Origin: Naegleria gruberi
Taxonomy: Eukaryota
Assembly: GCA_000004985.1 (NCBI GenBank)
Contig: GG738851.1
DNA: 64,000 bases
Reading direction: 5' to 3' (one strand)
Shown: piece by piece, positions 3,986 through 50,008 of the stretch
How positions within the stretch are numbered: the stretch's first letter is position 1
How the letters are laid out: the number at the start of each line of letters is the position of its first letter
Made by a program: the position numbers and the translations under genes
The notes under the pieces: model-generated
What the model was told of the DNA's origin: nothing
Databases searched by the model: none
Seen by the model: only the letters and a program-made list of their open reading frames with translations

Positions 3986-4069
3986 TCCGATGAGACGGAA
4001 TCGAACCGCCGACCACAGGATAACAGTTTCAGCTACAGTCCCATGCTCTACCAGCTGAGCTATCATCGG
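3986..4069 (-). tRNA. tRNA-Tyr (anticodon GUA) with 11-nt intron
   Basis: Reverse complement reads CCGATGATAGCTCAGCTGGTAGAGCATGGGACTGTAG[ctgaaactgtt]ATCCTGTGGTCGGCGGTTCGATTCCGTCTCATCGGA. The cloverleaf is complete: a 7-bp acceptor stem, D-arm GCTC/GAGC, anticodon loop CTGTAGA with GTA at positions 34-36, and T-arm GGCGG-TTCGATT-CCGTC. The intron sits after position 37, as is typical for eukaryotic tRNA-Tyr. Confidence 0.85.
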
Positions 4070-5439: not shown

Positions 5440-6815
5440 ATGAGCAGCAGCAACAAGTTCTTCCGTGTGTTGCATCAATCAAAGAAGAGCAAAGCACGTG
5501 TTGGTCAAATCATTACACAGCACGGAATTATCGAAACTCCAAACTTTGTACCAGTTGGAACGAATGGAACACTCAAAGGAATTGATAATCACTCACTTTC
5601 ATCATTGGATGTTCAGTTAATGTTTTCCAATACCTATCACTTGTTGATTCATCCGGGAGTTGAGGCAATTGAACAAGCAGGAGGATTACACAAGTATGTC
5701 TCTTGATTTTTATGTTAAACATATTCACATTCATATTCACATCCACATGAAAATATTAAATATTGAATGTGATGATGATTGAATATTTCAGATTTATTTC
5801 AAGGAAACATCCAATTATTACTGATTCGGGAGGTTTTCAAGTTTTTTCACTTCAATCAACACCAACAGAGGAAGGAGTTTTTGAAGGAGAATCACCGAGG
5901 AAATTGATTGAATTGAAAGGACAATCGAAGAATAAGGCACATTCAGAAAGTTTAGTTGAGAGAGTTTCTGAGGATGGTGTGACTTTTAGATCGTATAGGG
6001 ATGGTAAATTACTTCAGCTCACTCCTGAAACATCTGTCACTGCTCAACATAAATTTGGATCTGATATTATAATTCCATTTGATGAGCTGTTACCTGAACA
6101 TGTACCAATGACTGTTATTGAAGAATCTCTGGAAAGAACTCATAGATGGGAATTACGTTCATTGAAATGTCATTTGGAATTATCAAAACAATGTAACAAA
6201 CATCAACATATGTATTGTGTTTTACATGGTGGAACTAATTTGGATTTGAGAAAGAAATCAATGGATACTCTGCTGGATCCTTCATGTTTCCAATTTAGAG
6301 ATACTGAAGATGGTTTACCAAATGGATTTGAAGGAATTGCTATTGGAGGAAGTTTAGGATCGAATAGAGAGGAAATGTTGGATGTGTTAAAATTTACCTA
6401 CAATTATTTGGAAGAGAAGATTCCACAAGATTGTTTCGTACCTAATCATATCTTAGGCATTGGTGATATTGCCTCAATGAAATCATTTATTGAACTTGGA
6501 TTTGATACATGTGATTCGGCCTATCCAACTAGATTGGCAAGACATGGTAATTTAATTGTTGGTGCTGCCTCTGGAAATCCAACAACATTATCTATTAAGA
6601 GCTCAGCCTCTCTCGGAATGCACGATAGACCAATTGATACAACTTGTGATTGTCCAGTTTGTTCTGGGCCAGATGCCTACTCTGTGGCCTACTTGCACCA
6701 TCTATTCAAGATGAGTGAACCAACTTATATAACCCTCTCAACCATTCACAACGTTAGACAAATGATGATTTGGATGAAGACGATAAGAGAGAGAATAAAG
6801 AATGATGAATTGTAA
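5440..6815 (+). CDS. QTRT1: Queuine tRNA-ribosyltransferase catalytic subunit (tRNA-guanine transglycosylase), 2 exons
   Basis: Exon 1 (5440..5693) encodes ARVGQIITQHGIIETPNFVPVGTNGTLKG...NTYHLLIHPG. A GTATGT donor and TTTCAG acceptor define a 98-nt intron. Exon 2 (5792..6815) encodes PIITDSGGFQVFSL (catalytic Asp) and the Zn site CDCPVCS...AYLHHLF. Confidence 0.85.
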
Positions 6816-20532: not shown

Positions 20533-20651
20533 AGACTACAGCACCACAGGTTCCCAAGTTGTCTCCAACCTCAGTACTGATGTGGCTCGACGATGCTTAA
20601 CTTCTCAAATCGGACGGGATGAGGTGCATTCATCGTGATATGGCCGTAGCC
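20533..20651 (-). rRNA. 5S ribosomal RNA gene, copy 2
   Basis: Same ~119-nt 5S sequence as copy 1 (GGCTACGGCC variant), with an oligo-T terminator on the sense strand. The 16 bp immediately upstream of +1 (TTAAGAAAGTGAATGG) are shared with copy 3. Confidence 0.85.
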
Positions 20652-23128: not shown

Positions 23129-25280
23129 TTATCGATGTTTGAGTTTGTGTTTCAATTGTCTCTTGTCTGAGAGTGCCTTCTTCCACTTCTTTTCGTTTTG
23201 ACCCATGGTATTCTTGTGTCTGACGTTTCTGGACATCTTCAACATCATGTATGGCTTGTTCTTCTTCTTTTGCTTTTGAGTTTCTCCAGGTTGTTCCCAC
23301 TTTCTTCTGTTGAATTTCTTCTTTTCTGGTTCAAATTCATTGTCTGAATCGTCACCCTTAGAAATGTCACCAATATCATCTTCGTCAACATTTTCATTGC
23401 TAAAGATTGGGGTTTCTCTCTTTCTCTTCTTACCCATAAGCTTTTCCATTTCCTTGCTCTTTTTGAGTTTCTTAATCAACTCAAAGTCTTCTTGTGTAAG
23501 AATTCTGGTTTGATCAATTCTTGGGCCCTTTGGTTCCTCTGAAGCTTGTTCACCATCTTCAATGACTTCTTCTTCTTCACTGTCCAATTCGAAAACATCT
23601 TCCAAGTTCAACAATTCACCACCTTCCTCGTTATCAGATCCCTCAGAATCATCAGAGTCATCCATAGCAATATTGACATCATCTTCACCGTCGCTTGGAA
23701 CATCAATCCATTCACCTTCTTCATCAGAATCTTCACCATCAACAGCCATGAGATCCTTTTCAGATTCCTTTCTCTTATTGTATTCTTCCAATAATTCAAT
23801 GCCATCAACACCTTCAGCAACTCTTTGAGTACCAAATTCTGGAATGACTGCTTCAGGATCGTGATCTTTACCTCTGTCTTTCTTGTTCAACATCTTTGGA
23901 GAAAGTTCTCTGAAGAGTGTTATAATACCTCTAGCAGCATGGAAAACTTGTTTATCCTTATGTTTAGAATATTGAGATAAATCTCTCAAGAGGGTCTTGG
24001 TCATAACTCTTGGTTGTCTTGAACAAATAACTCTAATTGTATTCAAACCAGCTGCAATAACTTCTGGTTTGGAATGGTCATTAGCAAAATTGTTAGCAAT
24101 AGTCATGACGACTGGATGAATAACATCAGGAGGAACAAAATCGTGAACTGATTGGGCAGTAATGGCAAGAATCTTGGTAACATCTAAAAAATTGAAATAT
24201 ATCAGAAATTAAAATGTCACAAAACTTACTGGCTTGGGCAGGGAGTAAATATTTTTGAATGAAAGGATAAAAATTGAGAAGAACTAATTGATTTGAGGAA
24301 ACACATCTTGAAATAACGTCCAACATTAAAATTCTTACTTCAAATTTGTCATTTGAACTCTTCAATTTAGCAAAGAGTTTTTCAGAGAAACCTTGTGGAT
24401 CATTCAACATGTTGAGAACGTTCAATGATTCAATTTCCATACCCTTTTCCTTATGTTTATCCTTCTTTTTAAGTTGTTTGAGAGCTTTCTTAAATTTGTT
24501 TTCCTTTTTCTTTGTCTTTTTAGAGTGAATATTGTTAACTTTAAACTTTAAATCTCTAATCAAGTGACCAAGATCTCTATCATCTGATTTTTGTTTTGTT
24601 CCGTCTTCATCTTCTTCAGCTTCATCAACTAATTCACCCAAGAAGAATTTAAGTGCAATAACAACAAGAGCAGTATCTTCAGCAAAACATGATTGGGAAA
24701 TAACATTGACACATCTATCATCATTCCAAATACCTCTTCTATAAAGTGTAATTAAAAGTTGCAAACTCTTCTTTGCAGCAATACGGAATGAATCTTTCAA
24801 CATGGAAAAGACAAAGTTTTGCAATGATCTATTTACATTAGGATTCTTCTTCTTCATATTGATTTTAGTAATATCGGAGAGAATGTGTTTATAAACCATA
24901 CTTCTAAGAGTCTTATCATGTACTCGGAAAAGTTTAAATAATACTGGTATTAAAGTTTTAGAGTCAAGAATGTCGTTATTACGGAAAGCAATGAGTGTGA
25001 TAGCAAGTTGTCTTCTCAATTTTGGTTCTAATTCTAATTGTTTTGTTTCCAACAAATCCAAAATCATTGGTGCTGCAGTTTTGGTTTCTGCTTTATAAAC
25101 TTTGCAAGCAACACTCAAAAATTGCAACAATTTGACAAAATATTTAGCATCATCGGCTGGTCTCAATTTTGCAACTTCGGTTTGATTTTCCAAGTGTTTC
25201 AATTGAAGGAGGAAATCATCTTTATAAGCCTTTGGATCTTTAAAAACTTGTTCTTGAAGATGAAGGAGATCGATACTCAT
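23129..25280 (-). CDS. SDA1: SDA1 homolog (pre-60S ribosome export / actin organisation protein), 2 exons
   Basis: Exon 1 (24230..25280) encodes MSIDLLHLQEQVFKDPKAYKDDFLLQLKHL...VLLNFYPFIQKYLLPAQA and ends at a GTAAGT donor. A 46-nt intron (24184..24229) ends at a TTTAG acceptor. Exon 2 (23129..24183) encodes VTKILAITAQSVHDFVPPDVIHPVVMTIANNFANDHSKPEVIAAGLNTIRVICSRQP..., then an acidic region and a basic C-terminus. Confidence 0.8.
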
Positions 25281-25504: not shown

Positions 25505-27135
25505 ATGAAAAAGTTGTTGCTTTCTCATCGAATTCAGCTTCTTCTTCGGTATTATCTAGAAGAGGAGTTCAACATATAGAAAGTAGTATTAGGAAGGGAA
25601 GTGGAGCATTAGGATTTTCTCTATTGAATTCTTCAAAGAATAGAGATTTTCATGGGAACTCTTATAAGCGAGGATACAATTTTAAAGGAACAGAATTGGT
25701 CAGAGATTTCATTCATGATTCATTATATAATCCAGAATATGGATACTTCAACAAGAGTCATGAATTAATTATCAGTCATCCATTGTTTGAAGGAAAGGAA
25801 AATGTGGGAGAAATTTCATCATCCGAAGCCTTTGAAGAATTACTTTTAAATAATACTCTTCCAAGAGAAGAACAAACAATTTTACCATTTACTGAATTAG
25901 AAGATCATTTGGATTACTTGGAAAATTTATCTGAATTGTATCAAAGAGGTCCACAAAGTTGGGGTACTCCAATCGAAATATTTCAACCTTACTATGGTAT
26001 TGCAGTGGCAGAACACATTTTGAAAACACAATATGGATCATCTATTAATCAATCTTTGGATAGACCTTTGAAGATTTATGAAATGGGTGGCGGTATGGGC
26101 ACTTGTTGCAGAAATATTTTGGATTATTTGGAGACTGATTATCCAGAAATTTACAAGAATACAGAATATCACATTATTGAAATTTCTTCACAATTACACG
26201 AGCAACAGAAAATCAGATGTGCTCATCATGTAACCAATGGAAAACTCAAATTACATCACGACTCGTTTATGGATTGGAAACAAGTGGAGCAGGATGAATG
26301 CCACGTTATTGCTATGGAAGTTTTGGACAATTGTGCTCACGATAAGATTTCAATTGATGCTGATGGAAATGTTAAGGAATGTCATGTATTTTTCGATAAG
26401 GGTAAAAATTACTATGAGGAAGTTTACCTTGATTGTAGAGACGAGTTAATTATTAGATATTTGACGCTGGCTGGGGTTATTGAGACTTCTAACACAAAAA
26501 CCAAATTTTCTCCTAATTTTACCTACACCTCTCTGCAGGATAAGACTAAAGGAGCATTTACCAAACTGATTCAATCATTCTCTTCCAAATCCACAAATGG
26601 GATGAGATCACTCCTCATGAACTCCATTGGAGGAGACCATGTATTTTACATCCCAACAGTACAATTACAAATTATTGAAAAATTACAACAAAATTTCCCA
26701 AAACACCACTTTATTTGTGCCGATTTTGACTACTTGGGAACAGATGAATCTGGAGAAAGCAACAGACCACTCGTACAAAAGAAATTCAAATTCATGAAAA
26801 CCTCTAATTTATTAAGAAAGATCAGAGAGAAACGAACACTCTTTCTAAGTCCTGAAGATATCTCATCAGAGGACAATTTCTCCATAGAGTCACATGCATT
26901 CAGATCGTATCTAGTTCCAAAAGGAGAGTGTGATATTTTCTTTGCCACCGACTTCAATATCATGCAACAAGTTTACAGCAAAGTTTGTCAAGATCAAGGT
27001 GGCCTAAGAGGATCACTCGTCATGAAATCATCTCAATTCATGAAAGAATATGCAGAGTATGAAAATTTTACTACAAAATCAGGATACAATCCATTATTGA
27101 AAGATTACACAAACTTTTCATTCTTCCTCAGTTAA
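25505..27135 (+). CDS. NDUFAF7: NDUFAF7 / MidA-family mitochondrial protein arginine methyltransferase (complex I assembly factor)
   Basis: The main exon (~25593..27135) encodes ELVRDFIHDSLYNPEYGYFNK...PIEIFQPYYGIAVAEHIL...KIYEMGGGMGTCCRNILDYL...HIIEISSQL, the DUF185/MidA methyltransferase fold. The reported start at 25624 is a TTG. A short 5' exon (25505..25548) encoding MKKLLLSHRIQLLLR, a mitochondrial presequence, probably joins via a ~44-nt intron with a GTATTA donor. That junction is inferred from frame only. Confidence 0.7.
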
Positions 27136-27221
27136 ATTGATTTAAAAATACAAGTCAATCACGTTTTGTTCACCACCATAATTATGGCGCGTCTACTTTT
27201 TATGGAATTACATAAGAAAAA

Positions 27222-28763
27222 ATGTACACCAAGCACATTGTGGCCTTGTTTTGTTTCGTCTTGTTGTGTGATGTTGTTGCTGTCAATGCAGCAGCAGACA
27301 TTCTCTCACAAATGATGGAACAAATTCAACAAGTAAAATCATCATCGTGCAGGTACACTGCCACAGGTGTTGATTTCTCACAATGTAACGGTTATTCTAA
27401 AGGCATACTTCCTCCCATGTATGCAATGTTAGGATATAATCCAACCTCGACCGATCTATTCACCCTTCCTATCACCGAACCGAGTACAAACATTATTGTT
27501 GAGGGATATTTTAACCCTCAGGATGTTCTGCCGAATGTATGCGAATTCGAAAGTGGCTATTCTACACTCTTCCAAAATTCAACACCTAATAACTCTGAAT
27601 TTACACCAAATTTATTTTGGAATTTCAATACTAATGACTATTCAAATATATTTGGAAATGTTCTTGACATTCAACATTCGTGTTCACTTCAAAGTGAAAC
27701 CTTTGTTGCGTACAAAACTAATTCAGCAAATCTTGATTCTAATTTCAAGAAAATTATTTCACTACTTCCTATGGAGTATAATGAACAAGTTTATTCTTTA
27801 TTTTACAATAGTTATGGACCTTTAGTTTCAAAAGGTAAATATGGAGGAAGTAGAATTGAGACAATTGTAAAATCTTCAAATTTAGGTGTGAATAGAGATA
27901 GTTCAAAAGTGAAAATTGTTGGTGGTTATTCTGAAAAGGATAAACAGAGTTGGTCTTATTCTGTCTATAGGAATCCAACTATGGTTGATGTTGAGTTGAT
28001 TAGGATGAGTGATTTTATTAGAAATTTGAATTTGGCCTCTAGTAAGGTGATCAAAAACATGATTAGATTTGAAAAATCATTGTTAACAAGTATTTCTAGT
28101 AGAGATGTATACCAATCGATCTTGGAGCAAAACCGTCCTTGTAAGAATATTATACTTTCTAATATGTATGAAATCTATATACACTATGCATGCTATGTTC
28201 CAAACGTGTACACAAATGACTTAATTTCAAGAACCTATGGTTATCAAACCAAATCAGAAAACATTTTCAAATATGGGGTTATGGGAAAGGTTTGGAATTT
28301 AGATTTAAAATGTGGTCCTTCAGAAACAATGAATTTTGACAGAAATCATAAATCAAAATTCTTTTCATTGCGTTCCAATAATGAGCCACCTCAATACCCT
28401 TTCACTAGACCAGTATATTTTGATTTGAATGAATTTAATAGCCAAAACAAAAATGACTACCGACATTTCAGAGAGGCAGCACCCTATTGGAAATCAGATA
28501 TTGGAAGTAGGACACCTTTAGGAATTTTGGGTTACTGCTCTCCAGTCAAGTTAAAAGGTATGAAGCCATTGAATTTATACAAGTATAGCATCAATGAAGG
28601 GTTTGGACATTATTTGAGTATTTATTCACCTTCAACACCACCTTTAGAATACAATATTGGTTATACATATCCTCCAGATACTGGTATTGTACAGAAACAA
28701 ATCGAATCAGGAGATCCTGATTTGATATATTTCAAAGTTTGTGTGGAATTGGAAACAGATTAA
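27222..28763 (+). CDS. Secreted protein with MACPF-like signature (YGPLVSKGKYGG), 513 aa; paralog of convergent neighbour
   Basis: ATG at 27222 and a signal peptide (MYTKHIVALFCFVLLCDVVAVNAAAD). The internal block LFYNSYGPLVSKGKYGGSRIETIVKSS resembles the MACPF motif Y-x6-[FY]-G-T-H-[FY]-x6-G-G. Its stop codon overlaps the stop of the minus-strand paralog (TTAA at 28760-28763). Confidence 0.6.
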   Translation: MYTKHIVALFCFVLLCDVVAVNAAADILSQMMEQIQQVKSSSCRYTATGVDFSQCNGYSKGILPPMYAMLGYNPTSTDLFTLPITEPSTNIIVEGYFNPQDVLPNVCEFESGYSTLFQNSTPNNSEFTPNLFWNFNTNDYSNIFGNVLDIQHSCSLQSETFVAYKTNSANLDSNFKKIISLLPMEYNEQVYSLFYNSYGPLVSKGKYGGSRIETIVKSSNLGVNRDSSKVKIVGGYSEKDKQSWSYSVYRNPTMVDVELIRMSDFIRNLNLASSKVIKNMIRFEKSLLTSISSRDVYQSILEQNRPCKNIILSNMYEIYIHYACYVPNVYTNDLISRTYGYQTKSENIFKYGVMGKVWNLDLKCGPSETMNFDRNHKSKFFSLRSNNEPPQYPFTRPVYFDLNEFNSQNKNDYRHFREAAPYWKSDIGSRTPLGILGYCSPVKLKGMKPLNLYKYSINEGFGHYLSIYSPSTPPLEYNIGYTYPPDTGIVQKQIESGDPDLIYFKVCVELETD

Positions 28764-30079
28764 GAGGCAGGATAAATATAACACATAAAATATTCTTTTT
28801 TGAATTGTGAGGGTGCTGTGCTTCCATAATAATGATAATAATTAAAATACCTATTAAGCTCAATCATTCCCGCATATTGCTTTGAAGAACAGTATCCTAT
28901 TGGATAAACATATGTGTTTGAGTCTTTTGCCACCTTGTCAACTTCTGCTTTGGAACCAGTCACAAATGATTCATAAGCTATCTTTTGGTATTGAATTTTG
29001 TAATTTTGAGCCAAATAAATTGGCAAATCATACTTGTCAGATTTTTCGTGAGAAAGAATTCCAATAGCCCTTTTTCTTAAAATTCTATAATTCATAAAAT
29101 TAATATAGTTTAAACTCTCTGAAAATGGAACCAATTTGTAAAACCATTTGTAATAACTTAAATATTGAGATTGATCCTTATTCGATTCAGCTGTGATTTC
29201 GCCAAACATGAATAAATTATTCGTGCAACTATCTGAAAGTGAGTACCAATTATCAAAGGATTGATCAATGTAATTTGTGTCCAGAAGTGGTAAATTTGAC
29301 TGGCTCAACATTTGTAATACTCTTTCATTGGTTAGTTCATACTTTTTAAGATATTCACTCAAAGTCATAATTGAAAAACCGGCTTTTCCTGGATATTGAA
29401 TTATATCTTGTTCGAAAGTTGTCGAATTTCCTTTCCCTCCTATTAATATTTCATCTTGATTACTAATTATTTGCGAAGAAGCACAAGAACTACTACTATA
29501 ATTAGCAAACAATCGAATTCCTCCATATTTGATATTTGTCACAACATAGGGACCATAAATTTGAAAGAAATTATTGAAAATTTTCTCATCTGTACTTCTT
29601 TCAAGAGCTGCAAGAGCACTCATCATTTCACTATTGTGTGAAATTGACATTTTCTCATCTGCTTCACTTGTAATGTAGTACTGAGCACTAATTGTGCACG
29701 ATAACTTTAGTTTCAATACATTAGAATAGAAACTCTTGTATCTATTCATTGTAAAAGGCCATAGTGGTGAATGTGGACTCATACTTTCTGATAATACTTT
29801 GTTTAGTCCATTCGTAGTGATTGTAGAGGAAAGTAACGTTTCACCCAACAAGGAAGTGTTACCTACCCCCTGATCACACACTCCATCTACAGTGTATTCC
29901 ACTGGTTTCGGCAATGAATATTTGGTTTTGTAATTTGTGAAGGCAATATTCTTGGAGAATGTGATTCCACCATTTTGTGAATATTTTGCAGTGACAGAGA
30001 AGGGTCTTGTTTGTTGTTGATGAGTTGGATGACCACACAGAAGGAGAAGATGCAACAACAGAATGACTGCAAGTCTCAT
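28760..30079 (-). CDS. Secreted paralog with MACPF-like signature (YGPYVVTNIKYGG), ~440 aa
   Basis: The ORF runs to 30124. The hydrophobic signal peptide MRLAVILLLHLLLLCG begins at ATG 30077-30079, with an alternative ATG at 30124. FFQIYGPYVVTNIKYGGIRLFANYSSS aligns to LFYNSYGPLVSKGKYGGSRIETIVKSS of the plus-strand neighbour. Confidence 0.6.
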   Translation of the reverse strand: MRLAVILLLHLLLLCGHPTHQQQTRPFSVTAKYSQNGGITFSKNIAFTNYKTKYSLPKPVEYTVDGVCDQGVGNTSLLGETLLSSTITTNGLNKVLSESMSPHSPLWPFTMNRYKSFYSNVLKLKLSCTISAQYYITSEADEKMSISHNSEMMSALAALERSTDEKIFNNFFQIYGPYVVTNIKYGGIRLFANYSSSSCASSQIISNQDEILIGGKGNSTTFEQDIIQYPGKAGFSIMTLSEYLKKYELTNERVLQMLSQSNLPLLDTNYIDQSFDNWYSLSDSCTNNLFMFGEITAESNKDQSQYLSYYKWFYKLVPFSESLNYINFMNYRILRKRAIGILSHEKSDKYDLPIYLAQNYKIQYQKIAYESFVTGSKAEVDKVAKDSNTYVYPIGYCSSKQYAGMIELNRYFNYYHYYGSTAPSQFKKEYFMCYIYPAS

Positions 30080-30175
30080 TACACATTCTCTTTCCATTTT
30101 TTCATGTTTTAAAACATATCGCATTAGTTATTGGAAAATGGCCGAAACGTGATTAAAGGTCAATATGAGAAAAAA

Positions 30176-33100
30176 ATGAAACAGCTTCAGAGGAAATACA
30201 TTGCTCACCAAGTGCTTATTCTATTGTTTGTCTTTTTAGCATTGTTTTCAAAAAGAACAATGTGTAACAAAGCTCTTGGGATCTCAACAATTGTTGTGGG
30301 AAACTTGACTAATCCGTTTGGCCTCTCCATAACCAATCAATCACTACTAGTGGCCAATACCATTGGTCAGACAATCCTCTATGTAGATTTGAATAATTAC
30401 TTTAATTATAGTGTCATTGTGGGTGTGAAAGATGTTGCTGGATTTAACGGAGATGGTCAATTGACATATTTAAATATTACACTTGCCAATCCACAAAAAG
30501 CTTTTAAATATAATTCATTGATTTATGTGGCCGACACTTGGAATCAGAGAATTAGAGTTATTGATGGGAATTTTATGTATACTTTAATTGGTGATGGTGA
30601 ATGTGGTGATTCCAAGAATGGAAATGATTTAAAATCTTTTCAATTATGTAATCCAACGGATATATTCGTATTGGATGATATAATTTATATATGTGATTCT
30701 AATAATCATAAAATAAGAAAGATACAAAATGGAACTGTTGAAACCATATGTGGAAATGGTGACAATGGATTTAATGGAGATGATATCAAGGCAGTTGACG
30801 CAAGTTTGAATGAGCCTCAATCTATATACGTTACCAGAAACACTAAAGGAACAGACCATATATTATATATAGCCGATACAAGCAATCATCGAATTAGGAA
30901 AGTGGAAAACGGAATTATTTCAACTATTTGTGGAAATGGTGAAAGTAAATATAATGGGGATTTGATTCCTGCTAAAGAAGCTTCTCTAAACAATCCAAAA
31001 TCTGTATTGGTAACATCTGTTGGTGAGGTTTATTTCAGATTTTTCAAATAATAGAATTAGAAAAATTTTGACAAATCAAACAATAATGACAGTAACAGAT
31101 TTAATAGATTCTCCAACAGGAATGAGTTTGGATGAAAAGAATAGCACTTTATATGTTTCTGAATTTCTTAAAGGTCAAGTGAAAAAGATTAGTTTTCAAT
31201 GTTCATATGGATATAAGATAGATTCGTATTTCAATTGTGAACCATTCTGCGAAAATGAATGTAAACATGATGGAATATGTATTGCACCAAACAAATGTGA
31301 TTGCTACTCTAAATATGATGGAGATTATTGTCAATATCCTATTTGCTATGGAATTCCAAGTAATATTAATTCCACATGTTCCAAAAATGGGGAATGTCAA
31401 GATTTTAACAAATGCCAATGTTATGATGGATATTTTGGAGATGATTGTACAGGAATACTTTGCTTTGGAAAGAACACAACAGATGCAACTGTTTGTTCTG
31501 GGCATGGTAAATGCATTGCCAAGAATCAGTGTTCCTGTACAGATGACATGTTTGGAGGATTGGAGTGTCAATATCCTAAATGCAGGGGAATAGAATCTGA
31601 TAAGAAAGAAGTATGCTCATCACATGGTAAATGTGAAGCTCCAAATACGTGTTCATGCTTTGAAAACTATGTTGGAGAGGACTGCCAGTTTATTTCTTGC
31701 TTTGGAAAATATTCGAATGATTCTAATGTGTGCTTTGGAAATGGCAATTGTTCTTCACCAGATTTTTGCGCGTGTAGAAAAGGTTATACAGGAACTGAGT
31801 GTGAATATACTACTTGCTTTTGGAAAGTTTCAAACGATTCCTCTGTTTGTTCAGGACATGGCAAGTGTGTGAAACCTGACACTTGTGAATGTTCCAATCA
31901 TGATCAGTTTACCGGTATTCAATGTGAAATACCAATCTGTTATGGTGTTCCAGCAAATAATAACAGTGTTTGCTCTTCACAAGGTACTTGTATTGATGTA
32001 GAAAGTTGCCAATGTAACTTGGGATATCATGGACCTATGTGTAATGTAATTGAATGTTTTAATCAATATTCCAATCAGAGTAGTGCCTGCAGTGGTCACG
32101 GGCAGTGCATTCTACCAAATCTATGCCAATGTCATGAGAATTCTTTCACTGGACTTGAATGTGAACTTCCAGTATGTAACAATATTACACAAACTGATCC
32201 AAGAGTATGTTCTGCTAATGGAGAATGCAAAGCAATCAATGATACTACGATATGTGATTGTAGGAATGGATATGCAGGAACTGATTGCGAATTTCCAACT
32301 TGTCTTGGAATTCCTTCATCTGATGTCGACAGAGTTTGTGGTGGAAAGGGAGATTGCTTGGCCCCTAATTTGTGTAAATGCAAAGATGGACTATATGATG
32401 GATTATATTGTGAATTTCCAACATGTAGTGGAAAATCAATGAGAAATAATACGGCATGTAGCGGTTTGAATCAAGGAATTTGTGAATCTCTAAACAATTG
32501 TGTCTGTAAACATGGATATACAGGAAACGAATGTCAAATTCCAATATGTTTTTCTGAATTGTCATCGTCACCTCTTGTATGCAGTGGACGTGGTACTTGT
32601 ACATCAGCTGACCGTTGCAAATGTAAGAACGGCTATTCAGGAAAGAATTGTGAAGTTCCTCATTGTTTTGGTATCAGTGCTAATCTTTCAAGAGTTTGTA
32701 ACTGGAGAAATGGTACCTGTGTTGATAAGGATCGATGTGAATGTAATTTAGGATATCATGGCAATAATTGTCAAGTTCCAACTTGTAATGGAATTCTCTC
32801 TACTGAGCCGTCATGTTGTGGAGGACCATTGCGAGGTCAATGTTTGGCTCACAACTCTTGCTCATGTGCCCATGGTAAATATGGTGGACCAAATTGTGAG
32901 TTTTCCTATTGCTTTGGAATACTTTCGAGTGAGGCAAATGTTTGTAAGGGAACGGGAACTTGTATTTATCATGACAAGTGCGAATGCCATCTTGGTTACG
33001 CTGGTAGTGATTGTGGAGTCCCTTTAGAGGCAGTGTATATTGCCTCATCGATTGGCGGAGTTATTGTCTTGGCCTTATTAGTCATTCTCCTTGTTGTTTG

Positions 33101-34316
33101 TTCCTTGTATTTGAGAAAAGTTATTAAGGCAAAGCAAAATTTGAAAAGAATGGAGAATCTTGTCGATGATAGGGAAATGTATACATCATTGGTAGAAACC
33201 AGTTTTCACAGCACATCCTCGAAGGATTTGTTTTTAAATCCGAGTGACTTTCAACCAATTCAGGGACAATACAGAGCCATGGAAGGTGGGCAAGGAAAAG
33301 TCTACGTCGCCAATTATATTGGTATCAAAGTTGCACTTAAAAAGTTCCATAACAATGTTCCAAATGATGACATGGACGAATTGTCAAATGGAATTTCTGA
33401 AGACATTGAAAAGGAAATGAGAATGTTAAACGGTCTAAGACATCCAAGTATTGTTACATTTTATGGATATACTCTCTATAATGGATCTCCTTCCATGGTT
33501 ATGGGATACGTTCCTCACGCCCTAAATTCAATCATTTACAAAATAAGGAGAGGTCAGAAAATGAGTTTGGATTTGAAAATTCAAATAATTTACAATGTTA
33601 GTCAAGGATTGGAACATTGTCATACAAGATCTCCTCCAGTGATTCACAGAGATATAAAATCAGCAAATATTTTACTGGATGTCAAGTCTGAAGAGGAAAA
33701 TATTATTTCAGAAGTAACAGAAGTCAAGATTTGTGATTTTGGATTAAGTACTAAAGCGGATAGAGCTGAAACAAAGGTTATAGGTACTCCACATTATATG
33801 GCACCTGAGCTATTTACTTTGAGAAATATGTACACTGACCTGTTTGTAAATGATGATGAAGATGAAGATGAAATTACAGATGGCAGCTTTGATGATTCAG
33901 TGGATTATGACACATCTTCCGATGTATATTCTTTAGCTATTGTTATGTGGGAGCTATTCTTTGAATTACCACCGTATGACATGTCCGTTTATGATCAATG
34001 TCATCCTTCACTTTTTAGAAAAATTGCCAAACATCGAAAAATGTCTGCCCAAGCCTCCAAAGATTTACTTTCAAGAGGTATTCTCCTGAGTAAGGCTAAT
34101 TTCAGACCATTCATCCCATTCGATGATAGCAACACTCAAGATTGGTTATTGAATTACAGAACCTTTGATGTTAAATTATTTGGAATTGACCAACTTGAAA
34201 CCTTAACTAAACAATTCATAAATCTCATGAAAGAATGTTGGAAGACAGATCCATATCAAAGACCTCAATCTTCCAAACTCAAAGAACAACTCCAAAAGAT
34301 GCTGAATAAGAAATAA
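30176..34316 (+). CDS. Receptor-like Ser/Thr kinase: extracellular NHL-repeat beta-propeller + ~25 EGF-like (tenascin/integrin-beta type) repeats + TM + TKL-type kinase domain; apparent 1-nt frameshift near 31030-31045
   Basis: ATG at 30176 (MKQLQRKY..., a signal anchor). The NHL motifs are YVADTWNQRIRVI, YICDSNNHKIRKI, YIADTSNHRIRKV and FISDFSNNRIRKI. The fourth NHL unit straddles the switch from ORF 30131..31051 to ORF 31020..34316, which lie in different frames. The cysteine repeats are about 31 aa each (C..G.C.....C.C..G..G..C). The TM helix is IASSIGGVIVLALLVILLVVCSLYL. Kinase motifs are VALKKF, HRDIKSANILLD, DFGLS and GTPHYMAPE. Confidence 0.75.
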
Positions 34317-49889: not shown

Positions 49890-50008
49890 AGACTACAGCA
49901 CCACAGGTTCCCAAGTTGTCTCCAACCTCAGTACTGATGTGGCTCGACGATGCTTAACTTCTCAAATCGGACGGGATGAGGTGCATTCATCGTGATATGG
50001 CCGTAGCC
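49890..50008 (-). rRNA. 5S ribosomal RNA gene, copy 3
   Basis: Identical to copy 2 across the ~119-nt 5S body, with the same conserved 16-bp upstream element and oligo-T terminator. Confidence 0.85.

Follow-up and report, generated by a model that had tools for sequence, protein, structure and literature searches.

Perforin and the apicomplexan perforin-like proteins, which eukaryotic cells deploy against other cells, are secreted MACPF proteins with a C-terminal targeting domain. In Naegleria, the known membrane-permeabilising effectors are the naegleriapores, which are saposin-like pore formers. In the model of perforation by MACPF/CDC proteins, two helical clusters, from which the transmembrane hairpins TMH1 and TMH2 arise, refold into two hairpins. 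Strand 3 carries the MACPF motif, TMH2 is inserted between beta3 and beta4, and the conserved Trp helix, located in the beta4-beta4′ insertion, packs against the GG bend (PMC2954219). The length of TMH2 is 57 residues in Bth-MACPF of Bacteroides thetaiotaomicron (BT_3439), and TMHs of ~60 residues are general in C8alpha, C9 and perforin (PMC2954219). Here we analyse two adjacent convergent genes, p1 and p2, in a 64,000-nucleotide stretch of the Naegleria gruberi genome (contig GG738851.1 of assembly GCA_000004985.1; hereafter ‘the window’). We estimate a probability of roughly 70% that their products are exported, compact and divergent MACPF-fold proteins that are target-bound via a C-terminal domain, lack TMH2 and are atypical, being weakly lytic or non-lytic.

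Both open reading frames (ORFs) lie where the original prediction had located them, and the sequence blocks that it quoted are present at residues 192-209 of p1 and 186-202 of p2:

27222..28763, + strand: p1 gene, 513 aa, single exon; from the ORF list, exact-sequence look-up, Pfam MACPF and codon usage
28760..30124, - strand: p2 gene, 454 aa counted from the first ATG; from the ORF and codon usage

The Pfam search that the original prediction had proposed as a check on MACPF homology was run, and its outcome supports the assignment. p1 matches PF01823 at 28.1 bits (E 2.8e-6), over the gathering score of 21.5. When a fragment of p2 (110-210) was scanned alone, residues 128-202 matched profile positions 8-87 at 23.4 bits (E 7.6e-5), while residues 223-273 within a p1 fragment (205-300) scanned in the same way matched positions 148-203 at 22.5 bits, so that the two proteins give independent, collinear matches on complementary parts of the profile. 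Among PDB sequences, the p1 core (131-290) found complement C6 (E 1.4e-5) and C8alpha (E 7e-4), in each case as two collinear blocks, the first comprising the helices and the signature up to the GG (p1 165-209 with C6 307-352 and with C8alpha 276-321 in 3ojy), the second the Trp-helix block (p1 234-275 with C6 441-482 and with C8alpha 413-447). A profile of p1 and p2 together performed worse against PDB than p1 alone. The MACPF domains of C6 and C8alpha (PDB 3T5O and 3OJY) are thus the best sequence matches, sharing a signature block of the form ..LP.EYN...Y...F...YG.. up to the GG and a Trp block of the form W.S+..NP.++D.EL...... On these grounds p1 and p2 are very likely a pair of MACPF homologues.

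The signature itself is degenerate. It reads Y191-x6-Y198-G-P-L-V-x5-G208-G209 in p1 (block 192-209, SLFYNSYGPLVSKGKYGG) and F183-x6-Y190-G-P-Y-V-x6-G201-G202 in p2 (block 186-202, FFQIYGPYVVTNIKYGG). Against the expected Y/W-G-T/S-H-F/Y-x6-G-G (PROSITE Y-x6-[FY]-G-T-H-[FY]), the approximate match first proposed holds for the YG and the GG, which both proteins keep, and fails for T-H-[FY], which both have lost; the spacing is the expected x6 in p2 and one residue short (x5) in p1. Unlike in C6 and C8alpha, the T-H of the motif has become P-L or P-Y. Bth-MACPF likewise has a degenerate signature, YGEFV-x6-GG (PMC2954219). The Trp-helix residue is W244 in p1, within the Trp block aligned to C6 and C8alpha. 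The segments of the MACPF core were assigned as follows:

27657..27848, + strand: beta2, helices and degenerate MACPF signature of p1, residues 146-209
27849..27920, + strand: beta3, short turn and beta4 of p1, residues 210-233 (SRIETIVKSSNLGVNRDSSKVKIV), the canonical site of a ~57-60-residue TMH2
27921..28046, + strand: Trp-helix block of p1, residues 234-275, GGYSEKDKQSW244SYSVYRNPTMVDVELIRMSDFI...
29519..29743, - strand: beta2, helices and MACPF signature of p2, residues 128-202, from the Pfam MACPF match (profile positions 8-88)
29435..29518, - strand: beta3, turn and beta4 of p2, residues 203-230 (IRLFANYSSSSCASSQIISNQDEILIGG), short like that of p1, from the paralogue alignment

The two aligned blocks stand much closer together in p1 than in its PDB matches. 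The gap between them is 24 residues in p1, 88 in C6 and 91 in C8alpha, and the same shortfall appears when the distance from the GG to the conserved Trp, or to the equivalent helix position in p2, is counted:

C6, G352 to W451: 99 residues
C8alpha (3ojy), G319 to W416: 97 residues
Bth-MACPF, G237 to W340: 103 residues
p1, G209 to W244: 35 residues
p2, G202 to F237 (helix position): 35 residues

Compared with the 97-99 residues of C6 and C8alpha, the 35 residues of p1 and p2 leave no insert of TMH2 length, and the shortfall against all three proteins, 62-68 residues, equals one TMH2. Bth-MACPF also differs here, as a bacterial protein that retains both clusters, TMH1 with 48 aa and TMH2 with 57 aa (PMC2954219), and that has no detected sequence similarity to p1 or p2. 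From the signature GG to the ‘xGG’ of beta4, p1 and p2 have 24-28 residues, and about 60 match states of PF01823 (88-148) are covered by ~14 residues. What remains between the blocks of p1, SRIETIVKSS-NLGVNRDSS-KVKIVGG, reads as a strand, a short turn and a strand, and a simple scan places beta-amphipathic peaks next to each other in both proteins (209-219 and 224-237 in p1, 200-212 and 223-236 in p2). An unrecognised intron cannot supply the missing TMH2, because the ORFs are continuous. We consider it likely, with good though not full confidence, that TMH2 is absent from both p1 and p2 and that its loss is older than their duplication. To our knowledge there is no other case of a TMH2-less MACPF, and literature searches for such proteins gave nothing relevant.

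The other hairpin region may be present. A candidate TMH1 of ~48 residues, suitable in place and length, precedes beta2 in each protein (~98-145 in p1, ~83-132 in p2) and shows some aromatic/polar alternation; in p1 it includes a beta-amphipathic stretch at residues 126-138 (EFTPNLFWNFNTN). The region lies beyond the Pfam model, and similarity between p1 and p2 is undetectable in it:

27513..27656, + strand: candidate TMH1 of p1, residues ~98-145, between putative beta1 (NIIVEGY) and beta2, assigned by position relative to the Pfam-matched beta2/signature block

Downstream of the MACPF core, p1 and p2 have in common a C-terminal domain of ~170-220 residues, which is predicted to be lineage-specific. 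Positions conserved between the two copies include GYCS, GM..LN.Y, HY, PS and EY..Y.YP:

28089..28760, + strand: C-terminal domain of p1, residues ~290-513, from the paralogue alignment
28763..29287, - strand: C-terminal domain of p2, residues ~280-454, homologue of the p1 domain

Searches with the domain returned no Pfam family, no PDB match and no significant internal repeat. A signal for FYRN (PF05964) at p2 402-429 was rejected: its 20.5-20.9 bits fall short of the cut-off of 24, FYRC is missing, p1 has no match, and the signal is probably a composition artefact of Tyr-rich sequence. The arrangement resembles that of Bth-MACPF, in which the MACPF domain is followed by small lineage-specific C-terminal domains (PMC2954219). 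p1 and p2 differ from C6 and C8alpha in being devoid of flanking modules (TSP1, LDLa, EGF or others) and in their unrelated C-terminal domain. Perforin and the apicomplexan proteins combine both TMH clusters with defined C2 or APC-beta domains, whereas p1 and p2 are apparently without TMH2 and their C-terminal domain is unclassified; no direct sequence match to perforin or apicomplexan perforin-like proteins was obtained.

Each protein has a single hydrophobic N-terminal segment that is compatible with a cleaved signal peptide and with secretion. These calls were made from hydropathy (Kyte-Doolittle, KD, scale) and inspection by eye:

27222..27293, + strand: signal-peptide-like N-terminus of p1, residues 1-24 (MYTKHIVALFCFVLLCDVVAVNAA), cleavage site placed by eye
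30020..30079, - strand: signal-peptide-like segment of p2, residues 16-35 (MRLAVILLLHLLLLCGHPTH), placed by eye

In p1 the sole strongly hydrophobic 19-residue window scores KD 2.51 at residue 6, the runner-up reaching 0.66; in p2 the sole such window scores KD 2.14 at residue 14. The true start of p2 is most likely M16 (30079), from which its N-terminus reads MRLAVILLLHLLLLCG...

The relationship of p1 to p2 is clear at the protein level only. BLASTP aligns p1 132-485 with p2 121-453 at 20% identity over 370 aa (E 4e-10), and a Smith-Waterman comparison scores 173 against 45 ± 7 in 300 shuffles (z 17.6). Both parts contribute, each significantly (z 15.1 for the MACPF part, 6.7 for the C-terminal part), while the first ~100 residues show no significant similarity by the same comparison with shuffles. 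The DNA of the two genes has no similarity above chance-level 13-nt matches. The only exact 13-nt match, between 29518-29530 and 27837-27849, falls on the KYGG codons of the signature and is probably due to chance (E 0.07). A tblastn search of the window found no further paralogue. Judged by these alignments, p1 and p2 are ancient true paralogues with the whole architecture in common. The original prediction of an inverted duplication with intact copies is borne out in that the two genes are paralogues and both are open, although the recency that it implied is not: with protein identity at 20% and similarity absent from the DNA, this is an old duplication and does not represent a recent inverted repeat.

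In the reading that we prefer, p1 and p2 would be exported or sent to the phagosome, and their C-terminal domain would dock them to a target surface in the way of accessory domains of other MACPFs. Sheet edges of the MACPF domains would serve for self- or hetero-association, and at most one hairpin per subunit (the candidate TMH1, ~98-145 in p1) would insert, or no perforation would take place. A canonical barrel with four strands per subunit would be impossible, because TMH2 appears to be absent. Bth-MACPF offers a parallel, as a protein of uncertain function that may be non-lytic (PMC2954219). A further step, which we regard as tentative and rather doubtful, would be to see in the pair a Naegleria-specific lineage of TMH2-less MACPF proteins, maintained as two intact secreted paralogues, whose mechanism would be new to the MACPF/CDC superfamily. 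It might be a barrel with one hairpin per subunit, perhaps formed by p1 and p2 as a hetero-oligomer, or membrane binding or recognition without perforation through the new C-terminal domain.

The original prediction had taken the pair for pore-forming effectors. As such, secreted monomers would bind the membranes of prey or competitors and assemble into a ring, from which a beta-barrel formed by TMH1 and TMH2 would be inserted. Naegleria is a bacterivorous amoeba, in which lytic effectors are plausible. MACPF homology, signal-peptide-like N-termini with no second hydrophobic segment, and an accessory domain at the C-terminal position that is usual for membrane targeting in MACPFs (PMC2954219) all agree with this, but the interval from GG to beta4 (24-28 residues) is 60-70 residues longer, a TMH2 length, in C6, C8alpha and Bth-MACPF, and the T-H of the signature has been replaced in both proteins. 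With TMH2 missing by spacing from both p1 and p2, we regard canonical pore formers as unlikely.

The stop codons of p1 and p2 overlap, as first described, in the palindrome between the two genes, with two bases common to both:

28760..28763, no strand: TTAA with both stop codons, TAA at 28761-28763 on the + strand and TAA at 28762-28760 on the - strand

On the + strand the junction reads ...GAT TAA, and the sense codons of p1 and p2 do not overlap. The overlap is not special in this window, where the five convergent pairs of long ORFs have gaps of -4, 7, 24, 51 and 83 nt. The other four pairs, 7-83 nt apart, meet at 6815/6823, 17050/17075, 43989/44041 and 51812/51896. On its other side p2 is separated from the next, divergent gene (30124-30176) by a similarly short spacer of about 51-96 nt, and it seems that overlapping 3′ untranslated regions (UTRs) and bidirectional promoters of very small size are common throughout the region. 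The stop overlap is a by-product of tight packing, at the extreme of the range, and not a designed element. Since the stops overlap, each 3′ UTR must be antisense to the coding region of the other gene, an arrangement that is probably common to the other convergent pairs too.

Adjacent genes for two-component systems of the MACPF/CDC type are known (PMC11169675), and p1 and p2 might form another such system, in which, as in C8alpha/C8beta or the bacterial CDCL-L/CDCL-S, one protein binds and nucleates and the other is recruited, with the antisense 3′ ends coupling their expression. p1 and p2 resemble those pairs as neighbouring paralogous genes of one superfamily, have equal architecture, are both intact at 80% divergence, and have 3′ UTRs that must overlap. 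In the known pairs, domain content differs between the partners (one being without the binding domain) and the genes are co-directional and co-regulated, whereas p1 and p2 share one architecture and are convergent. The convergent orientation leaves no common promoter, the 3′ overlap is generic within the window, and antisense overlap is likelier to make expression mutually exclusive than to couple it. We therefore consider a two-component system very unlikely.

Codon usage was scored against a reference set of twelve Pfam-supported genes in the window, whose GC content is ~33%. In frame 0, p1 scores 0.279 and p2 0.241 bits per codon, compared with 0.27-0.42 in the six reference genes shown, and scores are negative in every other frame and on both antisense strands (p2 out of frame, -0.48 and -0.62 bits per codon). 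An ENA metagenome contig of 2377 bp (L001 of ERZ929261, PRJEB11402) is 99.5% identical to window positions 26617-28994, from which it differs by 10 mismatches and one intergenic indel with respect to the NEG-M sequence. It contains the 513-codon ORF of p1 and the identical tail-to-tail junction. The p1 allele in it carries four synonymous and three non-synonymous differences, all three of the latter within the C-terminal domain. A strain near-identical to N. gruberi NEG-M was thus present in that environmental sample. We take both genes to be real: each ORF is long and open, only the reading frame shows gene-like codon usage, and the independent metagenome contig preserves the junction and the ORF of p1.

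The family assignment of p1 is already public knowledge. An exact-sequence look-up identified it as XP_002681044.1 (EFC48300.1, UniProt D2V421), named ‘MAC/Perforin domain-containing protein [Naegleria gruberi strain NEG-M]’ in NCBI and UniProt. For p2, an exact look-up of three start variants in a collection of 15 billion proteins was empty, and the protein was not recovered by profile search although it was itself part of the profile. A contig index gave no record of the exact p2 gene, and look-ups of p1 and HSP70 there were also empty. The 454-codon ORF is absent from the protein sets of NCBI, UniRef and EukProt in the form in which the searched collections include them. It appears that p2 is an unannotated gene, a gene model missed in the N. 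gruberi annotation. New here are this overlooked paralogue, the common architecture with its unclassified C-terminal domain and the apparent absence of TMH2. That p2 could instead be a decaying, unexpressed duplicate, unannotated for that reason, with p1 alone functional, is hardly credible: its absence from the searched public protein sets, its full-length score under the Pfam cut-off and the change from Trp to Phe in the helix would fit, but a 454-codon open frame in DNA of 33% GC is very unlikely without constraint, gene-like codon usage is confined to the frame of p2, and the signal peptide, the YG..GG with its canonical x6 and the C-terminal motifs are retained.

Relatives of the pair were sought widely. 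An exhaustive phmmer search of 1.84 billion cluster representatives returned only p1’s own cluster, and a word-indexed search with p1 and a search with the p1/p2 profile (E<=10) returned only that cluster and the 99% metagenome allele. Two scans of metagenomes from the Joint Genome Institute (JGI) and scans of viral contigs and prokaryotic genomes yielded no relatives, and a viral or bacterial origin is unsupported because the scans of viral contigs and prokaryotic genomes were empty. Among the annotated proteomes of other heteroloboseans there is evidently no orthologue detectable at the protein level. Full-text literature searches gave no relevant paper joining Naegleria with MACPF or perforin, and among the papers listed none joined MACPF with Heterolobosea.

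Several observations weigh against the reading of p1 and p2 as exported, TMH2-less MACPF proteins. Full-length p2 scores 20.3 bits (E 6.7e-4) against PF01823, just under the cut-off of 21.5, neither the whole protein nor its fragment matches any PDB sequence, and F237 stands in p2 where the helix Trp would be expected. AlphaFold2 gave a mean pLDDT (predicted local distance difference test) of 32.1 for p1 as one sequence and 25.8 for a three-sequence alignment, so that neither model is usable, and for the fold, the loss of TMH2 and the presence of TMH1 the basis is sequence spacing together with a crude scan for amphipathicity. With no orthologues found, purifying selection is measurable only on one near-identical allele.

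The neighbours of the pair in the window are ordinary eukaryotic genes, among them an NDUFAF7-type methyltransferase, SDA1, an NHL/teneurin-EGF receptor kinase, a PAS adenylate cyclase, an ABC transporter, a SHIPPO flagellar protein, Wntless and HSP70. The HSP70, of mitochondrial type, is 100% identical over 649 aa to an N. gruberi HSP70 family protein, with 80% identity in Willaertia magna and 67% in Acrasis kona. This match identifies the window as N. gruberi, against a ciliate with tiny introns such as Stentor, which had been considered as its source and was rejected on that ground. Three dispersed 5S rRNA genes, all on the - strand (1328-1446, 20533-20651 and 49890-50008; Rfam 104-105 bits), each lie within an intergenic spacer between protein-coding genes, and a tRNA-Thr(TGT) is found at 3986-4069 (-).

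Two of the neighbouring genes are split between ORFs. The receptor-like gene at 30131-34316 (+), which encodes NHL repeats, teneurin-type EGF repeats, a transmembrane segment and a protein kinase, consists of two overlapping ORFs. One T added in a T-run near the break, at 31028-31040, restores the NHL register (VYFSDFSNNRIRKI, compare IYICDSNNHKIRKI); an assembly indel or a real frameshift is a better fit than a 16-nt GT..AG intron. The SDA1 homologue occupies two ORFs in different frames, 23129-24106 and 24126-25280 (-), and since the correct frame is already in use upstream of 24180, the intron or indel lies further 5′.

Should TMH2 prove to be present after all, the locus would amount to a MACPF-domain gene already known from automatic annotation and, beside it, the overlooked p2, a gene of 454 codons that is apparently missing in the N. 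gruberi annotation. The naegleriapores are small alpha-helical peptides of the saposin fold, unrelated in fold and sequence to p1 and p2. If our reading is true, p1 and p2 would be a second kind of candidate membrane-active effector in the Naegleria model system. As a natural pair without one of the two clusters, they would test how much of the MACPF machinery is needed, and what role the scaffold plays without it.

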